This document shows, one piece after another, positions 5,106 to 38,195 of a stretch of DNA of 56,418 nt. Position numbers and translations under genes: made by a program. Source of the stretch: Candidatus Jorgensenbacteria bacterium (GTDB lineage Bacteria > Patescibacteriota > Minisyncoccia > UBA6257 > GWB1-50-10). The notes beneath the pieces were generated by a model. That model saw only the letters and a program-made list of their open reading frames with translations. It was not told the origin of the DNA and did not search any database. Position 1 is the first letter of the stretch. Each line of letters starts with the position of its first letter. Location: assembly GCA_043797305.1 (NCBI GenBank), contig JAZDPW010000012.1:1-56418 (forward strand). The letters are read 5' to 3'.

Positions 5106-6395
5106 ATGCTCGAGAAGATTTTACGCTTTTCCAAAAAGTATCTCATTCCCAGACCGGTTTTTCGGCTGGTTCAGCCGTTTTATCACTATTTTCTCGCTTG
5201 GCTCGGCGCCGTGATTTGCGGCGCGCCGTCAAAGAAGATTTTCGTGGTGGGTATCACCGGCACCAAAGGCAAAACGACAGCTCTTGAGATGGTAAACGCC
5301 GTTCTCGAATCGGCCGGAAAAAAGACGGCAATGTTTTCCTCGGTCAGCCGGAAGATAGGAAGCGAGCGGCGGGGGAACCCAACCGAAACAACCATGCCGG
5401 GCCGGTTTGCTCTCCAGAGGTTTTTTGAGGAAGCGGTCCAAGCCGGTTGTACCCACGCCCTGGTTGAAGTCACCTCCGAGGGCGTGACCAGGCACCGTCA
5501 CCGTTTCATCCACTGGGACGCGGCGGTTTTTTTGAATATTCATCCCGAACACATCGAAGCCCACGGCACGTTCCACGCCTACCTTAAAGCCAAGCTCGGT
5601 TTCTTCCGTTATCTCAAGCATTCCGCCAAGGAGAAAAAGTATTTCCTCATTAACAAAGACGACTCTCACGCCCCCGATTTTGTGGAAGCGGCCGACGAAA
5701 CGAAGAGAAAAGAAGTGATACTTTTCAGCCGGGACGATGTTTCGAGGGTTTTGAACGAAATTAAGGAAGAGCACAGCCCGGACTGGCTCTCCGCCGACTT
5801 CAATTTTGAAAACGCGGCCGCCGCAAACGCCCTCGCCAAGGTCTTAGGAATAAAAGATGAGGAAATTTGGGAGGCTTTCCGGAATTTCAAAACCCTGAAA
5901 GGGAGAATGGACTTCGTCCAAAAGGAGCCCTTTGCGGTCGTCATTGATTACGCCCACACCCCGCTCTCGCTTCTTTCGGTTTACGAAAACCTGCGCCGGG
6001 AGCCGATTTTCAAAAAAGGTTCGCGCCTGATTTGCGTTTTGGGCTCGGCTGGCGGCGGCCGGGACAAATGGAAACGGCCCGAGCTCGGTAAAATCGCCGC
6101 CCACCACTGCGACCAGATTTTCATTACCGACGAAGACCCTTATGAAGAAGACCCCCGCCGAATCATGGAAGAAATAAAGTCCGGCATTCCGGGGGATGAA
6201 TTGCCGGCGCCGAAAATGGAAATGGTTTTGGATAGAAGAGAGGCTATTGAGAAAGCGATTTTTACCGCCCAAAAAGGCGACGTGGTTGCGATAACGGGGA
6301 AAGGAAGCGAAGAGTGGATTCACATGAAAGGCGGCGCAAAAATTCCCTGGGACGACCGCAAAATTGTCGAAGAGATTCTCTTTGACACTCGGTGA
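5106..6395 (+). CDS. murE: Mur ligase family protein (MurE-like UDP-MurNAc-tripeptide synthetase)
   Basis: P-loop GITGTKGKTT, DYAHTP motif, GSAGGGRDKWKRPELG and ITDEDPYEEDP motifs of MurE-type ligases. Confidence 0.7.
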   Translation: MLEKILRFSKKYLIPRPVFRLVQPFYHYFLAWLGAVICGAPSKKIFVVGITGTKGKTTALEMVNAVLESAGKKTAMFSSVSRKIGSERRGNPTETTMPGRFALQRFFEEAVQAGCTHALVEVTSEGVTRHRHRFIHWDAAVFLNIHPEHIEAHGTFHAYLKAKLGFFRYLKHSAKEKKYFLINKDDSHAPDFVEAADETKRKEVILFSRDDVSRVLNEIKEEHSPDWLSADFNFENAAAANALAKVLGIKDEEIWEAFRNFKTLKGRMDFVQKEPFAVVIDYAHTPLSLLSVYENLRREPIFKKGSRLICVLGSAGGGRDKWKRPELGKIAAHHCDQIFITDEDPYEEDPRRIMEEIKSGIPGDELPAPKMEMVLDRREAIEKAIFTAQKGDVVAITGKGSEEWIHMKGGAKIPWDDRKIVEEILFDTR

Positions 6396-9309: not shown

Positions 9310-10413
9310 ATGAAGGGTTTTACTCTTTCGGTCGGGCTTCTTGCCGGGACGATTATTGGCGCAGGAATTTTTTCTCTGCCTTACGTTATAAACCAAATAG
9401 GCCTTATCACAGGCGTTTTTTATTTGGGTTTTTTTGCCCTCGTTTATTTTTTGATTTTCATAATGTACGCCACCCTCCTTGAAAGTTCCGAAGGAGAGCA
9501 CCGCTTTATTTTTTTGGCCCGGAAGTTCCTGCCCCGGCCCATCGCCGGTCTCGCTTCTTTTACGGCCATTACCGACCTTATCTTTACCCTTACCATTTAT
9601 CTTATTCTCGGCGTTTCTTTCCTGGGGTTGATTGCCGACATGTCGGTTCTTACCGCTCTCTTCGCTTTTTGGTTTTTCAGTTCGATTTTTATTTTCGCGA
9701 AACTTTCGTTTCAAGGCGTGGCGGAGGTTTTAGGGACGCTCGCAATTGTTGCGGTCGTAGTTCTTGTTTTCTTCTCGGGTAGCGGCGTGCCGGATGTGCC
9801 GCTTTTCAAGGAACTGGACCTCAATAAGCTTCTTCTTCCTTTCGGGCCGCTTCTCTTCGCCTACGCGGCGAGAGTCGCCATTCCCAAAATTATCGGCGAA
9901 TACAGGCGGGGAAAATCGGCCGGCCGCCCCTTTTCTTTCAAAAAGGCGATATTTTTCGGTACTTTCCTGCCGGCCGTCGTTTATCTGGTATTCGTTTTCG
10001 GAGTTTTGCGGCTCGCCCCCGACGTTTCACCGGAGACGCTCGGTAGTTTAACTTTTCTTTCTCCCATCGTTCTTCTTCTCCTCGGTATTTTAGGAATCCT
10101 CGCCTTATGGACTTCGTATTTTATGATTGGAGCGGACGTGCGGGAAACGTTGAAATACGATCTTAAGATTCCCGGTTGGGCGAGTTCTCTTTTCGTTCTG
10201 GCTCTACCCCTCGGTCTTTATTTTGCCGGTTTTCAGGAGTTTTTGACCGTTTTGAGTTTTACGGGCGGCGTTTTCCTGGGGCTTGAGGGAATCTTCATAA
10301 TCGCCATGTGGTGGCGGGCGTTTCCTTCGCACCGCCTGCGGTATTTCACTCTTCCACTTTCCGCCGTTTTCGTCCTCGCTCTTATTTACTCCTTAGTCGA
10401 TTTCGTTCTATAG
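9310..10413 (+). CDS. Amino-acid permease-like polytopic membrane protein
   Basis: 367 aa, about 11 hydrophobic segments. The N-terminal GTIIGAGIFSLPY resembles APC / aromatic amino-acid permeases. Confidence 0.5.
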   Translation: MKGFTLSVGLLAGTIIGAGIFSLPYVINQIGLITGVFYLGFFALVYFLIFIMYATLLESSEGEHRFIFLARKFLPRPIAGLASFTAITDLIFTLTIYLILGVSFLGLIADMSVLTALFAFWFFSSIFIFAKLSFQGVAEVLGTLAIVAVVVLVFFSGSGVPDVPLFKELDLNKLLLPFGPLLFAYAARVAIPKIIGEYRRGKSAGRPFSFKKAIFFGTFLPAVVYLVFVFGVLRLAPDVSPETLGSLTFLSPIVLLLLGILGILALWTSYFMIGADVRETLKYDLKIPGWASSLFVLALPLGLYFAGFQEFLTVLSFTGGVFLGLEGIFIIAMWWRAFPSHRLRYFTLPLSAVFVLALIYSLVDFVL

Positions 10414-10425
10414 TAGATGGATAAT

Positions 10426-10502
10426 GCCCTCGTCGTTTAACTCCGACGCTCGCAAAGCGAGGTCGGAGCTCCGACCCCAGAGGGGCGTCGGAGCGGATAG
10501 GA
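10426..10502 (+). pseudogene. Duplicated 5' fragment of tRNA-Arg(CCG), interrupted by a double-hairpin element
   Basis: gccctcgtcgttTaa + [53-nt insert, 10441-10493] + cggatagga. The intact tRNA reads gccctcgtcgttCaacggatagga at 10777-10800. Confidence 0.7.
10441..10493 (+). repeat. Double-hairpin element, copy A (CTCCGAC...GTCGGAG twice)
   Basis: ctccgac-gctcgcaaagcgag-gtcggag followed by ctccgac-cccagaggggc-gtcggag. Related copies lie at 21239-21293 and 26469-26512. Confidence 0.8.
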
Positions 10503-10510
10503 TAACATTT

Positions 10511-10771
10511 ATGAAAGGGTATGTTTATGTTTTAAAGGACAGTCTTGGTAGGTTCTATGTTGGAAGCACTGATAGGCCAGAGAGAAGAATGCGGCAACAC
10601 CAAGGAGGACATACACAGACCACACGTAATATGAAATCATGGGGTTTGGTGCTTCTCCAAGAATATGAATCGCTTCCAGAAGCCAGACGAATTGAAAGAA
10701 AAATTAAGCGAATGAAAAGGAAAGATTACATTGAGAAAATGATTCGTGAAAAATGTATTAGAATAAAGTAA
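10511..10771 (+). CDS. GIY-YIG nuclease family protein
   Basis: MKGYVYVLKDSLGRFYVGSTDRPERRMRQH carries the GIY...YIG motif plus the conserved Arg. Start taken at internal ATG 10511. Confidence 0.8.
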   Translation: MKGYVYVLKDSLGRFYVGSTDRPERRMRQHQGGHTQTTRNMKSWGLVLLQEYESLPEARRIERKIKRMKRKDYIEKMIREKCIRIK

Positions 10772-10776
10772 CCCTT

Positions 10777-10848
10777 GCCCTCGTCGTTCAACGGATAGGA
10801 CGTGAGCTTCCGGAGCTTAAGATAGGGGTTCGATTCCTCTCGAGGGCG
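10777..10848 (+). tRNA. tRNA-Arg (anticodon CCG)
   Basis: Hand-folded cloverleaf: acceptor GCCCTCG/CGAGGGC, anticodon loop TTCCGGA, T-loop TTCGATT. CCA is not encoded. Confidence 0.85.
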
Positions 10849-10860
10849 CAAAAACAAAAA

Positions 10861-10889
10861 GCCGGGCTTTATATCCGGCATTTTATTTT
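10861..10889 (+). terminator. Intrinsic terminator after tRNA-Arg
   Basis: GCCGG-gctttatat-CCGGC followed by ATTTTATTTT. Confidence 0.55.
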
Positions 10890-11017
10890 CTCGTGAGGAA
10901 TCGAACACGAGAGGGGGTCGGGGAGAAGTTCAAGGTCTCCCCGTGTCGGATTGAGGTCGCCTGAGGCGACCGGACACAAAACCGAGGGTTTTGTGGGAGC
11001 AAATGAAGATGAGCGAC

Positions 11018-11041
11018 GTTCGCTTCCTTCGAGGGCGCAAA
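11018..11041 (+). repeat. Degenerate direct repeat of the tRNA-Arg 3' end (att-like)
   Basis: gttcgcttcct-tcgagggcgcaaa compared with the tRNA 3' end gttcgattcctctcgagggcgcaaa (10828-10852): about 23 of 25 positions match, with one gap. Confidence 0.6.
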
Positions 11042-11045
11042 CTTC

Positions 11046-11076
11046 AAAAACGGCTCAACCTGGTTGAGCCGTTTTT
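11046..11076. terminator. Bidirectional hairpin terminator
   Basis: AAAAA-CGGCTCAAC-ctg-GTTGAGCCG-TTTTT. Confidence 0.6.
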
Positions 11077-11133
11077 GCTTTCCTGTAAATAATTTTGTAA
11101 AATCCTCACAGAACCCTTACAGGAGGAAGGCCC

Positions 11134-11469
11134 ATGTCTGATAACTCTAAGGAATTCCCGTCGGTTGAGAACTTGGAGGCGGTCGCTTGGCTCTGCTTGG
11201 AAGGAGCGGCTATGACCGATCTCGATCAGTTCCCGCCCGGCTCCGGGATGAGCAGTGCCCGCAGGCTTCACGCGCGCAAGAGGCAATTCGAGGAAGCCGC
11301 GGTCAGGCTGAAGGCCGGAACCGGCATCCGGGAACTCGGTCTCTCTTTCACGGACTTCGCCTGGGCCGCTTCCATGGCGTACAGAGCAATCGATAAGGAG
11401 GGATGGCGGCGCCGTTTCGAGGCGGCGGCCGACGAGATGAAGGAACCGGAGTCGGTGGAAGGAGGATAG
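11134..11469 (+). CDS. Hypothetical protein in a GC-rich islet
   Basis: 111-aa ORF. AGGAGG lies 7 nt before the ATG. Third codon positions are GC-rich. No recognisable motif. Confidence 0.45.
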   Translation: MSDNSKEFPSVENLEAVAWLCLEGAAMTDLDQFPPGSGMSSARRLHARKRQFEEAAVRLKAGTGIRELGLSFTDFAWAASMAYRAIDKEGWRRRFEAAADEMKEPESVEGG

Positions 11470-11473
11470 GGTC

Positions 11474-11743
11474 ATGCCCAAAGGAACCGTCGTTTACCGC
11501 GCCGAGAACTATATCCTCGTCAGTCTGGCAGCCAGGCGGGTCAGGGTTGGTGCCAGGCAGAGCGTACACCCACAGACGCTTCTTCGTTGGGTTAAGACTC
11601 GGAAGGAAGTGAACGGACAGCCGATCCGAGCGATTCAGGACCCGATGAGTCGCCGCTACTACGTCCTCGAGAAGGACGTTGAGCGGATGTCCGATCCGGA
11701 CAGGTTCTTCGAAGTGGTGGTGCCGAAGCCGAATGGAGGCTAG
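11474..11743 (+). CDS. Small HTH protein (excisionase/MerR-like), GC-rich islet
   Basis: 89-aa ORF. GGAGG lies 8 nt before the ATG. The segment SLAARRVRVGARQSVHPQTLLRWVKT looks like an Xis/AlpA-type helix-turn-helix. Confidence 0.4.
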   Translation: MPKGTVVYRAENYILVSLAARRVRVGARQSVHPQTLLRWVKTRKEVNGQPIRAIQDPMSRRYYVLEKDVERMSDPDRFFEVVVPKPNGG

Positions 11744-21024: not shown

Positions 21025-21238
21025 ATGAGGGCCCCGGGTGGGTCCTCTTTGATAATTCTGTAAAACTAATACAAAAACTAATACATCCCGAAGCACAAGT
21101 GCCGCGGGATGTAATGCGATTGGGTCTTTTGACCCGATATCTTCCGTGGGCCTGGGAAACCCACGAGATGAGGCACGTATTCAACTGTGGAGAACTGAAC
21201 TTATTATAACCTTATCGGGAAACCTGTCTTGTGGATAA

Positions 21239-21293
21239 CTCCGACACCCCGACTAATACGGTTGGGGGTCGGAGTCCGACTGAAACGTCGGAC
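21239..21293 (+). repeat. Double-hairpin element, copy C
   Basis: ctccgac(a)cccc-gactaatacggtt-ggggGTCGGAG followed by GTCCGAC-tgaaac-GTCGGAC and TTTTT. Confidence 0.75.
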
Positions 21294-24640: not shown

Positions 24641-26452
24641 ATGTATAAATCAGAAACAAAAAACTGTCAGAATTGCAAAAAGGATTTCGTTATAGAACCG
24701 GACGATTTTGCTTTTTACAAGAAAATAGATGTCCCGCCGCCAACTTTTTGTCCAGAGTGTAGAGTGGTTCGGCGGCTTGTCTGGGTTAATGACAGGTCAC
24801 TTTATAGACGTAAGTGCGGTTTCTGCCCCAAAGAAGTGATTTCAGCTGTTCCTCCAACGTCGCCTATGCCCGTATATTGCAATCATTGTTGGTGGTCCGA
24901 TAAGTGGGATCCGAAGGACTACGGTGTCGATGTTGATTTCTCTCGTCCTTTTTTGGAACAATTCTCGGAGCTTTTGAGCCGCGTACCCTGGCCTGCGCTT
25001 GACACAATCGAGTCGTCAAACGTGCGGAGTGAGTACACTCACCACACATCTTATCTTAAAGATTGCTACTTAATGGCAAACACCGATTATAGTGAGGATT
25101 GTGCTTATGGAGCTTATGTGGAATACAGTAGAAACTCCTTTGATCTTTTGTTTTCCGATTACTGCACGGAGTGTTATGAAGGAGCAAACCTGTCAAAATG
25201 TAATAAAGTTTTTTTCTCATTAAATTGCGAGGATTGTTACAACGTTGCCCTTTCAATTAATTGTGTTGGTTGTTCTGACTGTTTCGGTTGCGTCAATCTT
25301 AGGAACAAGCAATACCACATTTTTAATGAGCCGTACTCGAAAGACGACTATAAAAAGAAAATTCAAGAGTTTGATTTAGGCTCTTTTAAAACCATTAATT
25401 TAGTAAGGCAGAAACTCAATGAACTATCCACCCGTTCTGTGCATCGGTATATGCATGGCAGAATGAACCGCGATGTATCCGGAGAGTATATTTATCGTTC
25501 CAAGAACGTAAAAGACAATTATCAGGTGATGGATACGGAGGATAGCAGATATTGCCATTTTATGATTCTTCCTACGACAAAAGACAGTTATGATTTCACG
25601 ATGTGGGGTGGGAATGCAGTTCGGATGTATGAGTGCGTATCATGCGGAGGAGGTAGCAATAACGTGCGATTCACTTTTCAGTGTTGGACCGAGCCGATAA
25701 TAAACGTGGAATACTGTACTTATCTCACTGCCGCCCCATGCCAAAATCTTTTTGGCTGTATAGCGTTGAAAAAAAGCAAAAACTGTATTTTAAACAAACA
25801 ATATACGGAAGAAGGGTTTAAGAAACTAAAGAAGAAAGTTATTGAGCACATGAATAAAATGCCCTATGTCGATAGAAGAAACAGGATTTATAAATACGGA
25901 GAATTCTTTCCAATAAATTTTTCACCATTTGCTTATAACGAAACCATTGCCCAGGAGTACTTCCCCCTGACCAAGGAACAAGCTATATCTCAAGGATATC
26001 GTTGGAAAGACCTCGAAACCAAGGAATACAAGGTCACCAAGCGCCCGGAAGACCTCCCAGACCAAATCAAGGACGTAGACGACAGAATCTTGAAGGAAAC
26101 CATCGGTTGTACCCACGCCAGTCCGCCAGCCGGCGGATGCAACGAACAATGCACTACCGCTTTCAAAATTATCGAACCGGAACTTCAATTCTACCGCAAG
26201 ATGAACCTTCCCTTACCTAGATTATGTCCCAATTGTCGTCACTACCAACGCTTAAAACAAAGAAACCCCCTTAAGTTGTGGCATCGCACTTGCCAGTGTG
26301 CCGGAGATAAATCAGAAAATAGTATCTATTCAAACAACACAAAACACTTCCATGAGAACGGTCATTGCCCCAATGAGTTTGAAACACCTTATTCTCCGGA
26401 CAGGAAAGAAATTGTGTATTGCGAAAGCTGCTACAATGCTGAAATTGCATGA
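24641..26452 (+). CDS. Cys-rich hypothetical protein with related zinc-ribbon-like modules at both termini
   Basis: 603-aa ORF with many CxxC pairs. The N-terminal and C-terminal segments share the same FY.K...P.P..CP.CR...R....N...L..R.C ... VYC..C pattern. The gene is AT-rich. Confidence 0.7.
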   Translation: MYKSETKNCQNCKKDFVIEPDDFAFYKKIDVPPPTFCPECRVVRRLVWVNDRSLYRRKCGFCPKEVISAVPPTSPMPVYCNHCWWSDKWDPKDYGVDVDFSRPFLEQFSELLSRVPWPALDTIESSNVRSEYTHHTSYLKDCYLMANTDYSEDCAYGAYVEYSRNSFDLLFSDYCTECYEGANLSKCNKVFFSLNCEDCYNVALSINCVGCSDCFGCVNLRNKQYHIFNEPYSKDDYKKKIQEFDLGSFKTINLVRQKLNELSTRSVHRYMHGRMNRDVSGEYIYRSKNVKDNYQVMDTEDSRYCHFMILPTTKDSYDFTMWGGNAVRMYECVSCGGGSNNVRFTFQCWTEPIINVEYCTYLTAAPCQNLFGCIALKKSKNCILNKQYTEEGFKKLKKKVIEHMNKMPYVDRRNRIYKYGEFFPINFSPFAYNETIAQEYFPLTKEQAISQGYRWKDLETKEYKVTKRPEDLPDQIKDVDDRILKETIGCTHASPPAGGCNEQCTTAFKIIEPELQFYRKMNLPLPRLCPNCRHYQRLKQRNPLKLWHRTCQCAGDKSENSIYSNNTKHFHENGHCPNEFETPYSPDRKEIVYCESCYNAEIA

Positions 26453-26468
26453 AGAAAGAAATTGTCTA

Positions 26469-26512
26469 CTCCGACGCCCAAAGAGGTCGGAGCCCCGACT
26501 GGAACGTCGGGG
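26469..26512 (+). repeat. Double-hairpin element, copy B
   Basis: CTCCGAC-gcccaaagag-GTCGGAG followed by CCCCGAC-tggaac-GTCGGGG. Confidence 0.8.
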
Positions 26513-26693
26513 CTGCGAACAATGCTATAACGCCGAAATCGTTTAAAGGTAATCTCTCGGTAAATCTCGGGACTCAAATTTATGGTAGAATTTATATCAC
26601 TGAAGGTTGTGTGAGCACAGATCATAAGGCAACCCCGCCTCTGGCGGGATGCTCAAATTTATAGCTTCACTTCGTTTCAGATAAATTTGGCAC

Positions 26694-36627: not shown

Positions 36628-38195
36628 GAAGTCAGTTGCCTAAGCAGGCTCTCGCCGGTCATTTCTTCCGGTTTGGGGATTTTCATAAGTTCCAGGAGAG
36701 TTGGAGCCACATCCGAGAGGATGCCGATAACCGGCATTTTCCGGGGGCTGGTGTCGGGGATGGAAAAAGGTTTTTCAAATTCCCGGGCCACAAGATAAAT
36801 CGGCACGGGGTTTGGGTCGTGAAAAGTTTCCGGCTCGCCGGTCTGGAGATTTAAAACCGATTCGGCATTGCCGTGGTCGGAAGTGACGACAAGAACATGG
36901 TTTCCTTCCAGTACTTCCTTTACCAATCGCCCCAGCTCCTGGTCAACGATTTTTACGGCCTTAAGAGTCGCCTCGTAATTGCCGGTATGGGCGATAAGGT
37001 CGGGGTTTGCGTAGTTTATAAGGATGAAATCGAATCCGCCTTCCCTTAAAGCGATAATCGCCCGGTCGGTTACTTCTTTTGCCATCATTTCCGGATTCTC
37101 CTCGTGCCGGATAGTGGTTTTCGAAGGGACGAGAACCCGGAACTCGTTCGGATAGGGAGCCTCCCGCAGGCCGTTGAAAAAGTAGGTGATGTGGGCGTAT
37201 TTTTCCGTTTCGGCAATCCGGAGCTGGGTAAGGCCCTTATCGGATAGCAGTTTCCCGAGAGGATTTTCCACCTTGCTTTTCGGGAAAGCGGCCGGGGTTT
37301 TTTGGTCATCGGTGTACCCGGTCATCGTGACTACAAAAGTATTTTTAAGGGGTTTAATCGGGAACTTATTGAAATCCGGGTTCAGAAACGGTTCGGAAAT
37401 TTGGCGCATGCTGTCTTCCCGGAAATTGAAGAAGATGATGGTGTCGTTGTCCTTGACTGGGTGCGGCTCGATGACGGTCGGTTCAATGTATTCGTCGTCG
37501 AGGTCCCGGCCGTAAATTTTGTTTATTGCTTCTTCCAGATTTGCCGCCGTTTGATTTTCGCCGGTAATGGTCTGATAAGCTTTTTCGGTTCTTTCCCAGA
37601 GATTGTTTCTGTCCATGCCGAAATAGCGGCCCGTCACGCTCGCGATAACGCCCACGCCGGTTTTGGCAATAACTTCATTGAGTTTTTTGAGAAGAGGAAG
37701 AACCGAACGAGGCGGACTGTCGCGGCCGTCGGAGAAAAGATGAAGATAAAGATTTTGCATTTTCTCTTTTGCCGCCATTTCAATTAAGGCGGCGAGGTGG
37801 TCGAAGGAAGCGTGGACGTTGCCTTGGGTGAGAAGGCCGATGAGGTGAACCGAAGAAATATTCTCTTTGGCGTGGGAGAAGGCGTTTTTAAGTTCGGGTA
37901 CCTGGAAAAAGGAGCCGTCTTCAATCGCCATCGATATTTTCGGGAAATACTGATAGATAATTTTTCCGGCGCCGAGGGTAAGGTGTCCTACTTCGCTGTT
38001 GCCTTCTTCTTCCCAGGGGAGGCCGATGGCGATGCCGGAGGCCTGAAGAGCACCCTTGGGAAATTTCGTTTCCAGTTCCTTTATGGTTTCCAAATCTGCC
38101 TTATAAATGGGGTTTGACTCGTTGAATTCGCCCAAACCCCAGCCGTCGAGGATTGCGAGAATAAAGGTTCTTTTCATTAAATCTAATTCTATCAT
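36624..38195 (-). CDS. gpmI: 2,3-bisphosphoglycerate-independent phosphoglycerate mutase
   Basis: LAILDGWG start, GNSEVGH motif, and C-terminal TSDHGNAE. Confidence 0.9.
   Translation of the reverse strand: MIELDLMKRTFILAILDGWGLGEFNESNPIYKADLETIKELETKFPKGALQASGIAIGLPWEEEGNSEVGHLTLGAGKIIYQYFPKISMAIEDGSFFQVPELKNAFSHAKENISSVHLIGLLTQGNVHASFDHLAALIEMAAKEKMQNLYLHLFSDGRDSPPRSVLPLLKKLNEVIAKTGVGVIASVTGRYFGMDRNNLWERTEKAYQTITGENQTAANLEEAINKIYGRDLDDEYIEPTVIEPHPVKDNDTIIFFNFREDSMRQISEPFLNPDFNKFPIKPLKNTFVVTMTGYTDDQKTPAAFPKSKVENPLGKLLSDKGLTQLRIAETEKYAHITYFFNGLREAPYPNEFRVLVPSKTTIRHEENPEMMAKEVTDRAIIALREGGFDFILINYANPDLIAHTGNYEATLKAVKIVDQELGRLVKEVLEGNHVLVVTSDHGNAESVLNLQTGEPETFHDPNPVPIYLVAREFEKPFSIPDTSPRKMPVIGILSDVAPTLLELMKIPKPEEMTGESLLRQLTS

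Follow-up and report, generated by a model that had tools for sequence, protein, structure and literature searches.

The 351 bases immediately upstream of the tRNA-Arg(CCG) gene in a 669-kb genome of Candidatus Jorgensenbacteria bacterium (contig JAZDPW010000012.1, of which 56,418 nt, here called the window, were analysed) are probably one copy of a family of selfish cassettes in Patescibacteria. The cassette unit would consist of a GC-rich double hairpin and a minimal Slx1/UPF0213-like GIY-YIG nuclease gene, seated inside a tRNA transcription unit with the promoter on one side and the mature tRNA on the other. That this is an inserted, once-mobile cassette is very likely, and that hairpin and nuclease form one unit is likely; that the nuclease drives the movement is a tentative proposition, a little short of even. 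A literature search of incomplete coverage brought up nothing that describes minimal GIY-YIG genes lodged in tRNA genes, and the locus is apparently one member of a large undescribed family. Its parts, by position in the window, are as follows.

10385 to 10414, + strand: promoter-like site (TTTACT-18-TATAGT), overlapping the permease stop codon
10426 to 10440, + strand: 5' remnant part 1, a copy of tRNA-Arg nt 1-15, GCCCTCGTCGTTTAA, with one change (C13T)
10441 to 10493, + strand: double-hairpin element of 53 nt (hairpin 1, 10441-10468; hairpin 2, 10469-10493)
10494 to 10502, + strand: 5' remnant part 2, CGGATAGGA, a copy of tRNA-Arg nt 16-24
10511 to 10771, + strand: single-domain GIY-YIG nuclease gene, 86 aa, Slx1/UPF0213 type by its sequence (Pfam PF01541)
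10777 to 10849, + strand: intact tRNA-Arg(CCG) (ARAGORN, 10777-10849; Rfam RF00005, 10777-10848, 54.8 bits)
10861 to 10879, + strand: intrinsic-terminator-like hairpin, the first on this strand after the promoter, closing the remnant-nuclease-tRNA unit
10890 to 11043, + strand: gene-less 'tRNA-tail' module (inverted T-arm copy, conserved structured core, decayed tRNA 3' copy)

The original prediction held that the first 24 nt of tRNA-Arg(CCG) are duplicated 351 nt upstream, that the upstream copy is split in its D-loop by a 53-nt double hairpin, and that the lone gene between the copies encodes a stand-alone GIY-YIG nuclease of 86 aa. All of this was recovered: a repeat search pairs TGCCCTCGTCGTTTAAC (10425-10441) with TGCCCTCGTCGTTCAAC (10776-10792) at a spacing of 351, the copy of nt 1-15 carries a single mismatch, and the hairpins lie exactly between sequential nt 15 and 16, within the D-loop (between AA and CGGATA). 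The GIY-YIG ORF, whose stop codon is 5 nt from the start of the intact tRNA, is the sole plausible gene between the two copies, and no tyrosine or serine recombinase gene accompanies it inside the insert; the flanking ORFs are a permease, two small ORFs and MurB. Remnant part 1 begins 12 nt past the permease stop, which is the exact start point of the intact tRNA at the empty site of a congener (G001, below). A chance alignment, raised as a possible refutation, is far from explaining the match, since the joint expectation for parts 1 and 2 together is ~1.6e-8 (a 15-mer with at most one mismatch within 1 kb, then the exact next 9-mer within 100 nt). The proposed search for the 350-bp unit elsewhere in the genome showed the full unit to be single-copy, with only part of the hairpin found again (C1:26789-26837). 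A tRNA intron and a split or permuted tRNA were considered and ruled out, as the downstream tRNA is complete and the upstream piece stops at nt 24. Rfam, searched at the gathering threshold and at E up to 10, matches nothing in 10300-11200 except the tRNA; the hairpins and the downstream module are outside all catalogued RNA families.

The promoter-like site is the only + strand match of its kind from 10250 to the tRNA, and in the three close relatives described below (G001, G002 and G003) identical hexamers precede the tRNA or remnant at the corresponding position. It is presumed, from these matches, to be the promoter of the tRNA transcription unit, now separated from the tRNA by the remnant and the nuclease gene; between it and 10861 there is no + strand terminator. 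Since this sole promoter is upstream of the remnant, the nuclease gene, which has none of its own, probably depends on the tRNA promoter and is carried in a long 5' leader that would be freed by the RNase P cut at the tRNA 5' end. The AGGA of remnant part 2 sits 8 nt before the nuclease ATG and may act as its ribosome-binding site.

Behind the tRNA, the tail module combines an inverted T-arm copy (10890-10906) with a decayed direct copy of the tRNA 3' end (~11018-11043), so that the 3' end is also duplicated (10840-10852 = 11029-11041). Homologous modules, with ends matching their own tRNA, follow tRNA-Arg(GCG) and tRNA-Leu(GAG) of this genome, and others lie behind 11 further tRNA/tmRNA genes in 13 of 41 relatives. 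The module folds with z = -2.7 on the + strand and -4.25 on the - strand, and has no Rfam match. It adjoins the nuclease cassette yet is independent of it. A GC-rich two-ORF islet encoding an Xis-like protein is also found downstream.

The studied genome (G000) was compared with 41 relatives, among them two congeners (G001, G003) and a sister species (G002). Both congeners have empty sites: in G001 the permease stop is followed by 12 nt and a 100%-identical tRNA, and in G003 by 32 nt and the tRNA. The tRNA-Arg(CCG) is 100% identical in the studied genome, G001 and G002. Permease DNA identity is 77% between G000 and G002 against 69-72% otherwise, making these two sisters, and G002 is also occupied, with two hairpin-split remnants at tRNA-Arg. 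Its order is remnant with hairpins and a nuclease gene (59% identical), a second remnant with hairpins like ours, 31 nt, and the tRNA. In alignment, these 31 nt match the opening and closing bases of our nuclease gene, identifying an internally deleted copy of our cassette type. By parsimony over four genomes, this order would fit a later unit entering at the remnant only if cassette A is ancestral. A related cassette is present at tRNA-Arg(GCG) in another relative (G022), at a locus that is empty in the studied genome. An exact search of public metagenome contigs for the junction of this species, empty or occupied, gave 0 matches. Within one genus the cassette is thus seen live, decayed and, at two sites, absent, which makes the locus a good test case. 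The comparison proposed to check the original prediction accordingly turned up both kinds of site as well as many other copies of the cassette, and the claim that a GIY-YIG cassette was inserted, with an intact tRNA regenerated and a 5' remnant left behind, is borne out by empty G001 and G003 and occupied G000 and G002.

The nuclease matches PF01541 along positions 1-74 of the 78 in the profile (E = 1.6e-12; 47.9 bits, where the cut-off is 22.6), and its gene has a G+C content of 37.5% against 48.6% for the genome. The catalytic set (GIY Tyr, YIG Tyr, Arg, His/Tyr, Glu) is complete, with Y16, R26, H30 and E62 invariant and Y6 at least 90% conserved among 26 homologues of 42-71% identity, and the active site is apparently intact. 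No invariant Asn follows E62 among these homologues, the subfamily has a conserved basic tail (LKRKDYIEK), and a DNA-binding or auxiliary domain is absent from the 86 aa by Pfam and by the structural model. That AlphaFold model (pLDDT 91.8) has the element order E-E-H-H-E-H-H, with a predicted three-stranded sheet and flanking helices (GIY-YIG fold). Its top Foldseek matches are 1zg2, 1ywl and Slx1 nuclease domains (rmsd 2.5-2.9 A over 71 columns), with I-TevI ranked 27 (E = 1.2) and UvrC 34, and phmmer against the PDB finds 1ywl (E = 1.5e-6), 1zg2 (E = 9.3e-6) and SLX1 (E = 2.4e-3). By these comparisons the protein is assigned to the Slx1/UPF0213 branch and not to I-TevI/Seg-like nucleases. 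NCBIfam names neither the nuclease nor the two downstream ORFs, and PHROGs gives weak endonuclease matches only. A 115-aa in-frame ORF (10424-10771) running through remnant and hairpins is probably spurious; the homologues begin MKGYVY, and G002 has no ATG there.

Both hairpins have the stem CTCCGAC/GTCGGAG. Folded as single-stranded DNA, the element forms two adjacent hairpins at -23 kcal/mol (z = -3.85; 0 of 200 shuffles as good). Among related cassettes, 20 hairpins from 12 of them were compared: the core of the stem, CCGA/TCGG, is the same in all 20, and the outer pairs covary. Two sense-strand T.G wobbles are seen in hairpin stems. About a dozen further places in this genome carry hairpins with this stem, some with no nuclease gene nearby; at one of these, away from any nuclease gene, a solo hairpin interrupts a protein gene's duplicated 3' end (26453-26546). 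The TCCGAC...GTCGGA hairpin family is present in 31 of the 41 relatives, including G001 (6 copies) and G003 (5), two genomes without this nuclease subfamily. The hairpin is therefore not restricted to nuclease-subfamily genomes among these relatives, and it can persist or spread alone; a cognate pair is unsupported by this comparison, and support for the pairing comes instead from a survey of loci.

That survey, GTDB-wide, covered 80 representative-genome loci, with tRNA genes sought from -30 to +150 nt of the nuclease stop, and shows the subfamily to be widespread in Patescibacteria. The gene ends at a same-strand tRNA in 72 of 80 loci (about 90%), and in 69 of those 72 it is preceded by CCGAC hairpins, whose conserved stem is NNCCGAC/GTCGGNN. 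The recurring layout is hairpins, ~19 nt (the median distance from hairpins to start codon is 19 nt), a gene of 80-90 aa, a few nt, and the tRNA. Insertion is mostly at tRNA nt 15/16 or 10/11; 27 loci have a remnant ending at nt 15 and 9 have one ending at nt 10, and tRNA numbering runs on across the hairpins, as in a clean insertion, at 29 of the 34 loci with both flanks mapped. Targets are tRNAs for Arg (31), Thr (15), Phe (6), His (6), Val (6) and Ile (5), and also Ala, Asn and Pro. Down to ~45% protein identity, and over nine or more tRNA targets, the hairpin stem core is unchanged; because the tRNA type varies while the stem stays, the mobile unit is likely to comprise hairpin and nuclease together, as against a scar in which a hairpin happened to form. 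Clades of the nuclease correspond to hairpin type and to the sequence of the D-arm (an Arg clade; a Val-CAC/Ala-TGC pair with 99% support), and several divergent paralogues can share one 0.6-0.7-Mb genome at different tRNAs. At locus L065 the middle, intact tRNA differs in its acceptor stem from the flanking split copy, and the tRNA there is therefore cargo.

Two smaller samples agree. The best GIY-YIG loci in the 41 relatives lie within 300 nt of a tRNA in 22 of 30 cases (expected p = 0.042, P = 2.6e-24), with upstream-type cassettes on the strand of the tRNA in 16 of 16, and homologues of 56-66% identity in metagenomes are at tRNA-Arg in 9 of 9 contexts, 8 of them with a hairpin-split remnant, in most of which the split falls between TTCAA and YGGATAG. 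The S20-cassette-tRNA-Arg(GCG) synteny is kept in L067 and L071, and given such loci much of the distribution may be vertical and movement rare.

The geometry at the studied locus would be that of a single D-loop insertion at nt 15/16, in the order [hairpins][tRNA nt 16-24][nuclease gene][tRNA nt 1-15], with the resident nt 1-15 remaining upstream as a hairpin-capped remnant; as the downstream tRNA is complete, the host loses nothing. Most likely the nuclease nicks or breaks a structured site, either the hairpin junction or the D-arm of a tRNA gene, and host recombination or repair would then copy or paste the unit into a tRNA gene with the same short 5' segment. Classical double-strand homing at nt 15/16 is unlikely. 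The tRNA adjoining the cassette is identical to the tRNA of the empty site, so a D-loop-cutting nuclease would cut its own host, which argues against simple homing, and recognition of a long double-stranded site is more than one would expect from an 86-aa domain that lacks a DNA-binding module. The Slx1/UPF0213 likeness, as opposed to an I-TevI/Seg likeness, likewise makes classical homing doubtful, and the mode of movement is one that we infer. As the protein has no DNA-binding domain, the 'homing-type' of the original prediction describes the outcome of the insertion and not its mechanism.

A bolder version, which we consider doubtful, is an autonomous transposable element of a new class, built of a double hairpin and an Slx1-like nuclease with no transposase or integrase. 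Its structure-reading nuclease would cut after the same short tRNA segment at both unit ends and at the target, any tRNA gene sharing that segment could then receive the unit in its D-loop, by pasting or copying, and excision would restore a perfect tRNA gene. Such an element would borrow the tRNA promoter and be invisible to selection on the host tRNA, with the solo hairpins and the hairpin-split protein-gene end (26453-26546) as non-autonomous forms derived from it.

Integration into tRNA genes is a classical event, and the elements found there have part of the tRNA directly repeated on either side. This favours taking the duplication for att-type repeats of a lost phage or island at a tRNA-Arg attB, with the nuclease as the last cargo and the hairpins added later, as do the duplicated 3' end of the same tRNA and the downstream GC-rich two-ORF islet with its Xis-like protein. 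Such a scar is nevertheless extremely improbable: there is no integrase in or near the unit, the duplication is of the 5' end where the usual one is of the 3' end and it brackets 351 nt only, the empty sites of G001 and G003 are clean, and the minimal layout recurs in 69-72 of 80 loci across many lineages, a pattern that independent decay of large islands would not yield. The original prediction had also called the insertion possibly 'integrative', for which no integrase speaks. It is very improbable, too, that the double hairpin is an unrelated small mobile repeat that landed in a dead tRNA remnant. The same stem does occur at about a dozen other places here, one splitting a protein-gene 3' duplicate, and in genomes without the nuclease subfamily; but hairpins accompany 69 of 72 tRNA-linked members at the near-fixed nt 15/16 or 10/11, a median of 19 nt before the start codon, and their stem core is invariant to ~45% protein identity over nine or more tRNA targets. 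A later, incidental insertion is thus contradicted by a hairpin that is a constant cassette part at these 69 loci and at least nine tRNA types.

Two further explanations keep the nuclease and deny it the role of mobiliser. A domesticated leader gene, that is, a host nuclease co-transcribed with tRNAs for a tRNA- or RNA-related role, with remnant and hairpins as a structured 5' UTR or processing signal and presence or absence reflecting loss, would account for the strict co-orientation, the near-abutment with the tRNA and the single upstream promoter, and also for the long persistence with catalytic residues intact and the two sense-strand T.G wobbles in hairpin stems; an Slx1-like prokaryotic nuclease fused to TrmH (tRNA G18 methyltransferase) offers a parallel (PMC1564403). 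We think this improbable, given divergent paralogues at different tRNAs, several per 0.6-0.7-Mb genome, and the many marks of insertion: tRNA-fragment duplications, stacked or deleted copies, clean empty sites in congeners, an AT-rich gene, and the L065 cargo tRNA that replaces a split resident gene. Rather unlikely, though a possibility of more weight, is that the unit is real and inserted and the nuclease does not mobilise it. The nuclease would then serve, for example, in Ssn-like cutting of hairpin ssDNA in transformation, in defence, or in repair at heavily transcribed tRNA genes, and the unit would have spread by ordinary homologous recombination alone, embedded in conserved tRNA sequence and borrowing a strong promoter. 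Ssn proteins are single-domain GIY-YIG enzymes with hairpin repeats, ssDNA nucleases that act on their own hairpins and modulate transformation (PMC11893778), the closest structures to ours are Slx1-type structure-specific nucleases, the hairpin family is scattered in genomes with and without the nuclease, and synteny is kept at some loci (L067, L071). Yet on one side the unit offers homology arms of only 10-25 nt, a length at which RecA does not recombine efficiently unless there is a break; it has moved between nine or more tRNA types sharing little beyond D-arm motifs; stacked and decayed cassettes at one site resemble repeated active invasion; and the SRM motif that partners Ssn is neither present in the flanks nor enriched genome-wide.

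If the selfish-cassette reading is true, the tRNA transcription units of ultra-small Patescibacteria are home to a whole class of tiny selfish elements, and the long-unassigned UPF0213/YhbQ/Slx1-like mini-nucleases gain a biological role. The element would occupy an essential gene, present once in a 0.67-Mb genome, and cost its host nothing, since it brings along the piece of the gene that it displaces. It would also account for many 'partial tRNA' and pseudo-tRNA calls that confuse genome annotation, and would supply natural nuclease-hairpin pairs with exploitable specificity, as done for Ssn.

Among known systems, the Slx1-like/UPF0213 (YhbQ-type) proteins, 1ywl (EF2693) and 1zg2 (BH0048), are the best sequence and fold matches to the cassette nuclease, and share with it a minimal GIY-YIG domain of ~90 aa, no auxiliary domain and no invariant C-terminal Asn, the last a trait of the Slx1 branch (Dunin-Horkawicz et al., 2006, PMC1564403). 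That paper reports these proteins neither next to tRNA genes nor with tRNA-fragment duplications, and the cassette subfamily differs from them in its conserved tail LKRKDYIEK and constant hairpin partner. SegB, in the T4 tRNA gene cluster, is a free-standing GIY-YIG gene that promotes inheritance of itself and its flanks (PMC2330249), and the T-even systems resemble ours in having a GIY-YIG gene among tRNA genes, with empty and occupied alleles among relatives. Seg and I-TevI are phage-borne two-domain enzymes with a DNA-binding module, whereas the cassette nuclease is a single domain of 86 aa, and the T-even systems have no duplicated tRNA segment, hairpin or nesting in a tRNA transcription unit. 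Measured against classical homing, our locus does have empty and occupied alleles in close relatives (G001 and G003 versus G000 and G002), and it has no N-terminal GIY-YIG domain tethered to a C-terminal DNA-binding domain; nor is any immunity polymorphism visible, the intact tRNA beside the cassette being identical to that of the empty site. Integrase islands and prophages in tRNA genes are similar in that they regenerate the tRNA and have a segment of it directly repeated on either side of the insert; here that repeat is present at both insert ends, but it is of the 5' end and interrupted by the cassette's own hairpins, the insert is 351 nt, and there is no integrase.

Mitochondria offer a likeness of another kind. 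Paquin et al. are said to have described, in 1994, a mitochondrial mobile endonuclease ORF carrying a replacement gene end; in such cases the ORF enters with a spare terminal gene segment, the gene stays functional and the old end becomes a remnant. As far as the citing account goes, mobile double hairpins, known as elements of Allomyces mtDNA, are found in the same genomes as endonuclease ORFs (Paquin, Laforest and Lang, 2000, cited in PMC3787672). These cases differ in being organellar, in affecting protein-gene 3' ends, in having larger endonucleases, and in that the ORF unit does not regularly include the hairpins. The Ssn family (SsnA, 94 aa, with NTS/SRM hairpin repeats; Chenal et al., Nat Commun 2025, PMC11893778) mentions tRNA 0 times in its description, and our hairpins lie on one side only, within a tRNA remnant, with the stem NNCCGAC...GTCGGNN. 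The SRM motif HGTCWYN(0-2)YYVSBRHN(0-5)WNVSBRGN(0-2)RNCYNB has 0 matches in 9901-11400 and is not enriched genome-wide (5 matches against 2-7 in shuffles), and we therefore do not file the locus as an Ssn/SRM pair. The likeness lies in a single-domain GIY-YIG gene of ~90 aa with GC-rich hairpin repeats and a hairpin variant for each homologue (PMC11893778), and for hairpin recognition by a protein of this size Ssn is the best precedent.

The source assembly (G000) comprises 669 kb in 35 contigs, the window being contig C12. Every part of the tRNA-Arg(CCG) locus described in the original prediction, including an upstream remnant of the tRNA 5' part split by hairpins, was found in place by repeat, hairpin, fold, tRNA and profile searches; a promoter-like site and a terminator-like hairpin came in addition:

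10385-10414, + strand: promoter-like site TTTACT-18-TATAGT, the only + strand match, overlapping the upstream permease's stop codon
10426-10440, + strand: remnant part 1, tRNA nt 1-15 with one change, C13T (repeat search, family D1, spacing 351)
10441-10493, + strand: double hairpin, 53 bases, two adjacent hairpins with common stem CTCCGAC/GTCGGAG
10494-10502, + strand: remnant part 2, tRNA nt 16-24, CGGATAGGA (sequence reading)
10511-10771, + strand: GIY-YIG nuclease ORF, 86 aa (clear GIY-YIG profile match)
10777-10849, + strand: intact tRNA-Arg(CCG) (tRNA prediction and Rfam)
10861-10879, + strand: first + strand terminator-like hairpin, 3' of tRNA-Arg(CCG)

The hairpins split the remnant in the D-loop, between sequential tRNA nt 15 and 16, and the remnant runs to nt 24, one base short of the D-stem's end; the two-part repeat has a joint chance expectation of ~1.6e-8. 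As DNA, the double hairpin folds at -23 kcal/mol (z = -3.85). G+C content is 72% in the hairpins and 37.5% in the AT-rich nuclease gene, versus 48.6% for the genome, and 5 nt separate the ORF end from the tRNA. With the sole promoter before the remnant and the first terminator after the tRNA, the remnant, hairpins, nuclease gene and tRNA form one predicted transcript, from which we infer that the nuclease mRNA would be the 5' leader of the tRNA precursor. TTTACT/TATAGT hexamers also precede the tRNA or remnant in three other species of the genus (G001, G002, G003).

Comparison with relatives supports and sharpens the proposal that a GIY-YIG cassette (double hairpin plus mini-nuclease gene) inserted here and the tRNA was regenerated; both empty sites and further copies are clearly present. 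In G001, the permease stop codon is followed by 12 nt and a tRNA 100% identical to that of G000, and no remnant, hairpin or nuclease gene was found at this locus; the G000 remnant starts exactly 12 nt past the permease stop, the same spacing. The G003 site is also empty (32-nt spacer, tRNA 99% identical). The G003 tRNA (locus L036) is one base apart from those of the other three species of the genus, and the differing base lies at the exact insertion point (D-loop CAA/AGG vs CAA/CGG). In G007, from a different genus, the permease is followed directly by the tRNA and the tRNA by murB, with no nuclease gene; ~45 nt upstream of its tRNA-Arg(CCG) (L038), a single TTCCGAC...GTCGGAA hairpin beside a GCCCTG motif (GCCCTG + TTCCGACGCAAGGTCGGAA) is possibly the old scar of a lost cassette. 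The unit regenerates the tRNA.

G002, the sister species of G000 by permease DNA identity (77% vs 69-72%), is occupied, and shows that units decay and stack. Its permease stop is followed by a first remnant, in which a double hairpin of another subtype separates nt 1-15 from nt 16-24, and by a nuclease gene with 59% identity to that of G000; next come a second remnant, whose double hairpin resembles that of G000 and lies between nt 1-15 and nt 16-25, then 31 nt and the intact tRNA. These 31 nt align with the first bases and last 21 bases of the G000 nuclease region and are an internally deleted copy of the G000 cassette type. The subtype of the first G002 cassette also occurs in G022, before tRNA-Arg(GCG), which has its first 25 bases in common with tRNA-Arg(CCG). 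The orthologous tRNA-Arg(GCG) locus in G000 (contig C31) is an empty site, where the tRNA directly abuts the stop codon of the gene before it.

G000 carries ~9 GIY-YIG mini-genes, six of them with a tRNA at most 300 nt away (P = 4e-7). Matches were found in 35 of 41 relatives; among the best 30 loci, 22 lie at most 300 nt from a tRNA (P = 2.6e-24). At 16 of these, a same-strand tRNA (Arg, Ala, Val, Gln, Tyr, Cys, Glu) begins just past the end of the gene, mostly with a hairpin-interrupted copy of the tRNA 5' part preceding the start codon. In tRNA-Gln cassettes of relatives (L011, L014, L017), the nuclease ORF has no stop codon before the tRNA and reads into it (tail ...AAGSSNGRT...), so that gene and tRNA overlap. 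The closer subfamily of the G000 nuclease comprises 117 clusters (42-71% identity), and all source names giving a taxon are Patescibacteria lineages. All nine contexts examined lie directly upstream of tRNA-Arg (GCG, UCU, CCU), and in eight CCGAC hairpins split the remnant, mostly at TTCAA/YGGATAG.

Species-representative genomes were then scanned with the subfamily profile, yielding 80 loci, of which 72 have a same-strand tRNA starting at -30 to +150 nt from the stop codon (Arg 31, Thr 15, Phe 6, His 6, Val 6, Ile 5, Ala 1, Asn 1, Pro 1). At least one NNCCGAY...RTCGGNN hairpin lies in the upstream 260 nt at 69 of the 72, with two adjacent hairpins in 50 of these 69 and a median of 19 nt from hairpin end to ATG. 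In 27 loci the remnant breaks off after tRNA nt 15, in 9 after nt 10; of the 34 loci with both flanks mapped, 29 resume the tRNA numbering past the hairpins without a break. The stem core CCGA/TCGG is invariant in 20/20 hairpins, and the outer pairs change in a compensatory way. Since the stem is constant and the tRNA-derived flanks vary by target, the hairpins are part of the element, which has switched tRNA target many times; hairpin and nuclease probably form one unit. In the mini-nuclease tree, clades track the kind of hairpin and the D-arm sequence. Support is 99% both for the Arg clade and for a Val(CAC)/Ala(UGC) pair, which has the same hairpin at the same D-arm position. The window locus is thus a well-preserved representative of a large family of cassettes, each a hairpin plus mini-nuclease gene nested at a tRNA, that apparently has not been described before.

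G000 also has mirror-image cassettes on the 3' side of tRNAs:

C23:16126-16530: mirror cassette, tRNA-Leu(UAG); the GIY-YIG gene starts 2 nt past the tRNA and is followed by two hairpins splitting a T-loop remnant
C24:50596-51030: mirror cassette, tRNA-Asn, then a gene running into a 3' remnant
C7:6045-6500: mirror cassette, tRNA-Gly, 3' remnant, then a GIY-YIG gene lying between the arms of a 15-nt inverted repeat, CCCCGTTAGAAGTCA

Also on C24 (49582-49792), tRNA-Lys(UUU) has an upstream 29-nt perfect copy of its nt 8-36 and a downstream 27-nt copy of its nt 38-64. In Ca. Harrisonbacteria (JAHFLF010000001.1; L065 / L142, locus positions ~1410-1970), a remnant split by a double hairpin is followed by a nuclease gene, an intact tRNA-Arg(UCU) and a second, almost full-length tRNA-Arg(UCU). 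The second copy has the same double hairpin in its D-loop and an acceptor 3' strand, CGGGGAC, matching the upstream remnant, unlike the acceptor stem of the intact tRNA (ACCCCCA/TGGGGGT). Here the functional tRNA arrived as cassette cargo, and the resident tRNA gene was split.

Among proteins with structures, the nearest by sequence are two UPF0213 members, EF2693 and BH0048, followed by SLX1. The confident structure model (pLDDT 91.8) has the GIY-YIG fold; in a structure search, 1zg2, 1ywl and the nuclease domains of Slx1 are much closer to it than I-TevI or UvrC. Y16, R26, H30 and E62 do not vary in the homologue alignment, and Y6 hardly does; the basic tail LKRKDYIEK is subfamily-specific. 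The 86-aa enzyme thus looks active, and belongs with structure-specific (Slx1) or hairpin-reading (Ssn) nucleases rather than with two-domain homing endonucleases.

Downstream of the tRNA, the order is a gene-less module, terminator, two-ORF islet and murB:

10890-11043: tRNA-tail module, with an inverted T-arm copy, core and decayed direct copy of the tRNA 3' end
11134-11743: islet, 60.5% GC, two ORFs (111 and 89 aa), between module and murB
C31 ~5230-5375 and C17 ~37700-37845: further modules in G000, behind tRNA-Arg(GCG) and tRNA-Leu(GAG)

The conserved core (~100 nt) reads GGGGGTCGGGGA...TCCCCGTGTCGGA...AAAACCGAGGGT...GAGCGACGT, and the module has no Rfam match. Of the 41 relatives, 13 carry it too, behind 11 other tRNA/tmRNA genes (tRNAs for Met, Arg, Leu, Ser, Pro, Gly, Gln, Asp and Lys, plus a tmRNA-like 3' end), its arms matching their own tRNA except in G024, where they match each other and a G000 tRNA-Leu, not the adjacent tRNA. 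An RNA made from the tRNA's strand is hinted at by a G.T wobble on the + strand and by an A.G mismatch that recurs in its AAACCGAGGGTG hairpin. Because it occurs without any nuclease gene, the module is a second, independent kind of tRNA-end insertion. Neither islet ORF has a Pfam, NCBIfam or PHROGs match; the second resembles an Xis/MerR-type helix-turn-helix protein. G007 lacks the islet, its murB coming directly after the tRNA. With module and islet downstream and the cassette upstream, the tRNA-Arg(CCG) gene was hit on both sides.

Elsewhere in the window, a double hairpin of the CTCCGAC/GTCGGAG family (26469-26512), with no nuclease gene nearby, cleanly splits a tandem duplicate (26453-26546) of the last ~48 nt of ORF 24641-26452. 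This is a protein-gene case of the same logic, in which a spare gene end is paired with a hairpin-split remnant. Two more (window 21230-21293 and C34:37139-37200) lie directly 3' of TGTGGATAA, a DnaA-box-like nonamer.

The unit is very probably an inserted, once-mobile cassette. The geometry is most simply one event at tRNA nt 15/16, the inserted piece being [hairpins][nt 16-24][linker, gene, linker][nt 1-15]. This could arise by a single crossover within nt 1-15 between the tRNA gene and a circular or linear unit copy, by break repair with an occupied allele as template, or by cuts after nt 15 at both unit ends and the target followed by ligation, in which case excision would restore a perfect tRNA gene. 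If, by parsimony over four genomes, the G000 cassette type (type A) is assumed ancestral to G000 and G002, the second G002 cassette entered at the remnant's nt 15/hairpin junction and not at an intact D-loop, so that only the 5' 15 nt would be needed as target. Such entry would be easier to reconcile with a crossover, or with cuts after nt 15, than with classical homing at an intact site. Classical double-strand homing at nt 15/16 is unlikely, and faces an immunity problem because an occupied genome retains the unaltered target.

In the model we favor, a hairpin-ended cassette would be expressed from the tRNA promoter and moved by recombination that the nuclease initiates at a short segment of the tRNA 5' part; that the nuclease drives the movement is held tentatively, and its role and substrate are ones that we infer. 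That the nuclease is passive, Ssn-like cargo is fairly unlikely, though the likeliest of the rival readings. Rivals generally gain from the hairpin family also being found without the nuclease and from conserved synteny at some loci. A domesticated leader gene is improbable. A double hairpin that is an unrelated repeat landed in a dead remnant is more improbable still, given the constant stem, and an integrase scar is the least credible of all.

A literature search found no published account of this tRNA-nested layout of hairpins and mini-nuclease. Mitochondrial endonuclease ORFs reportedly bring a spare gene end. Double-hairpin elements are described in Allomyces (PMC3787672). Both systems share logic with the cassette, not parts. 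A 2006 superfamily survey recorded minimal prokaryotic Slx1-like proteins and a TrmH fusion, with no tRNA-gene linkage (PMC1564403). SegB is a GIY-YIG homing enzyme within a phage tRNA cluster (PMC2330249), but it belongs to another superfamily branch and has another architecture. Ssn proteins are 94-aa GIY-YIG nucleases whose genes are flanked by their own hairpin repeats; their description nowhere mentions tRNA (PMC11893778), and the window locus lacks the Ssn motif.
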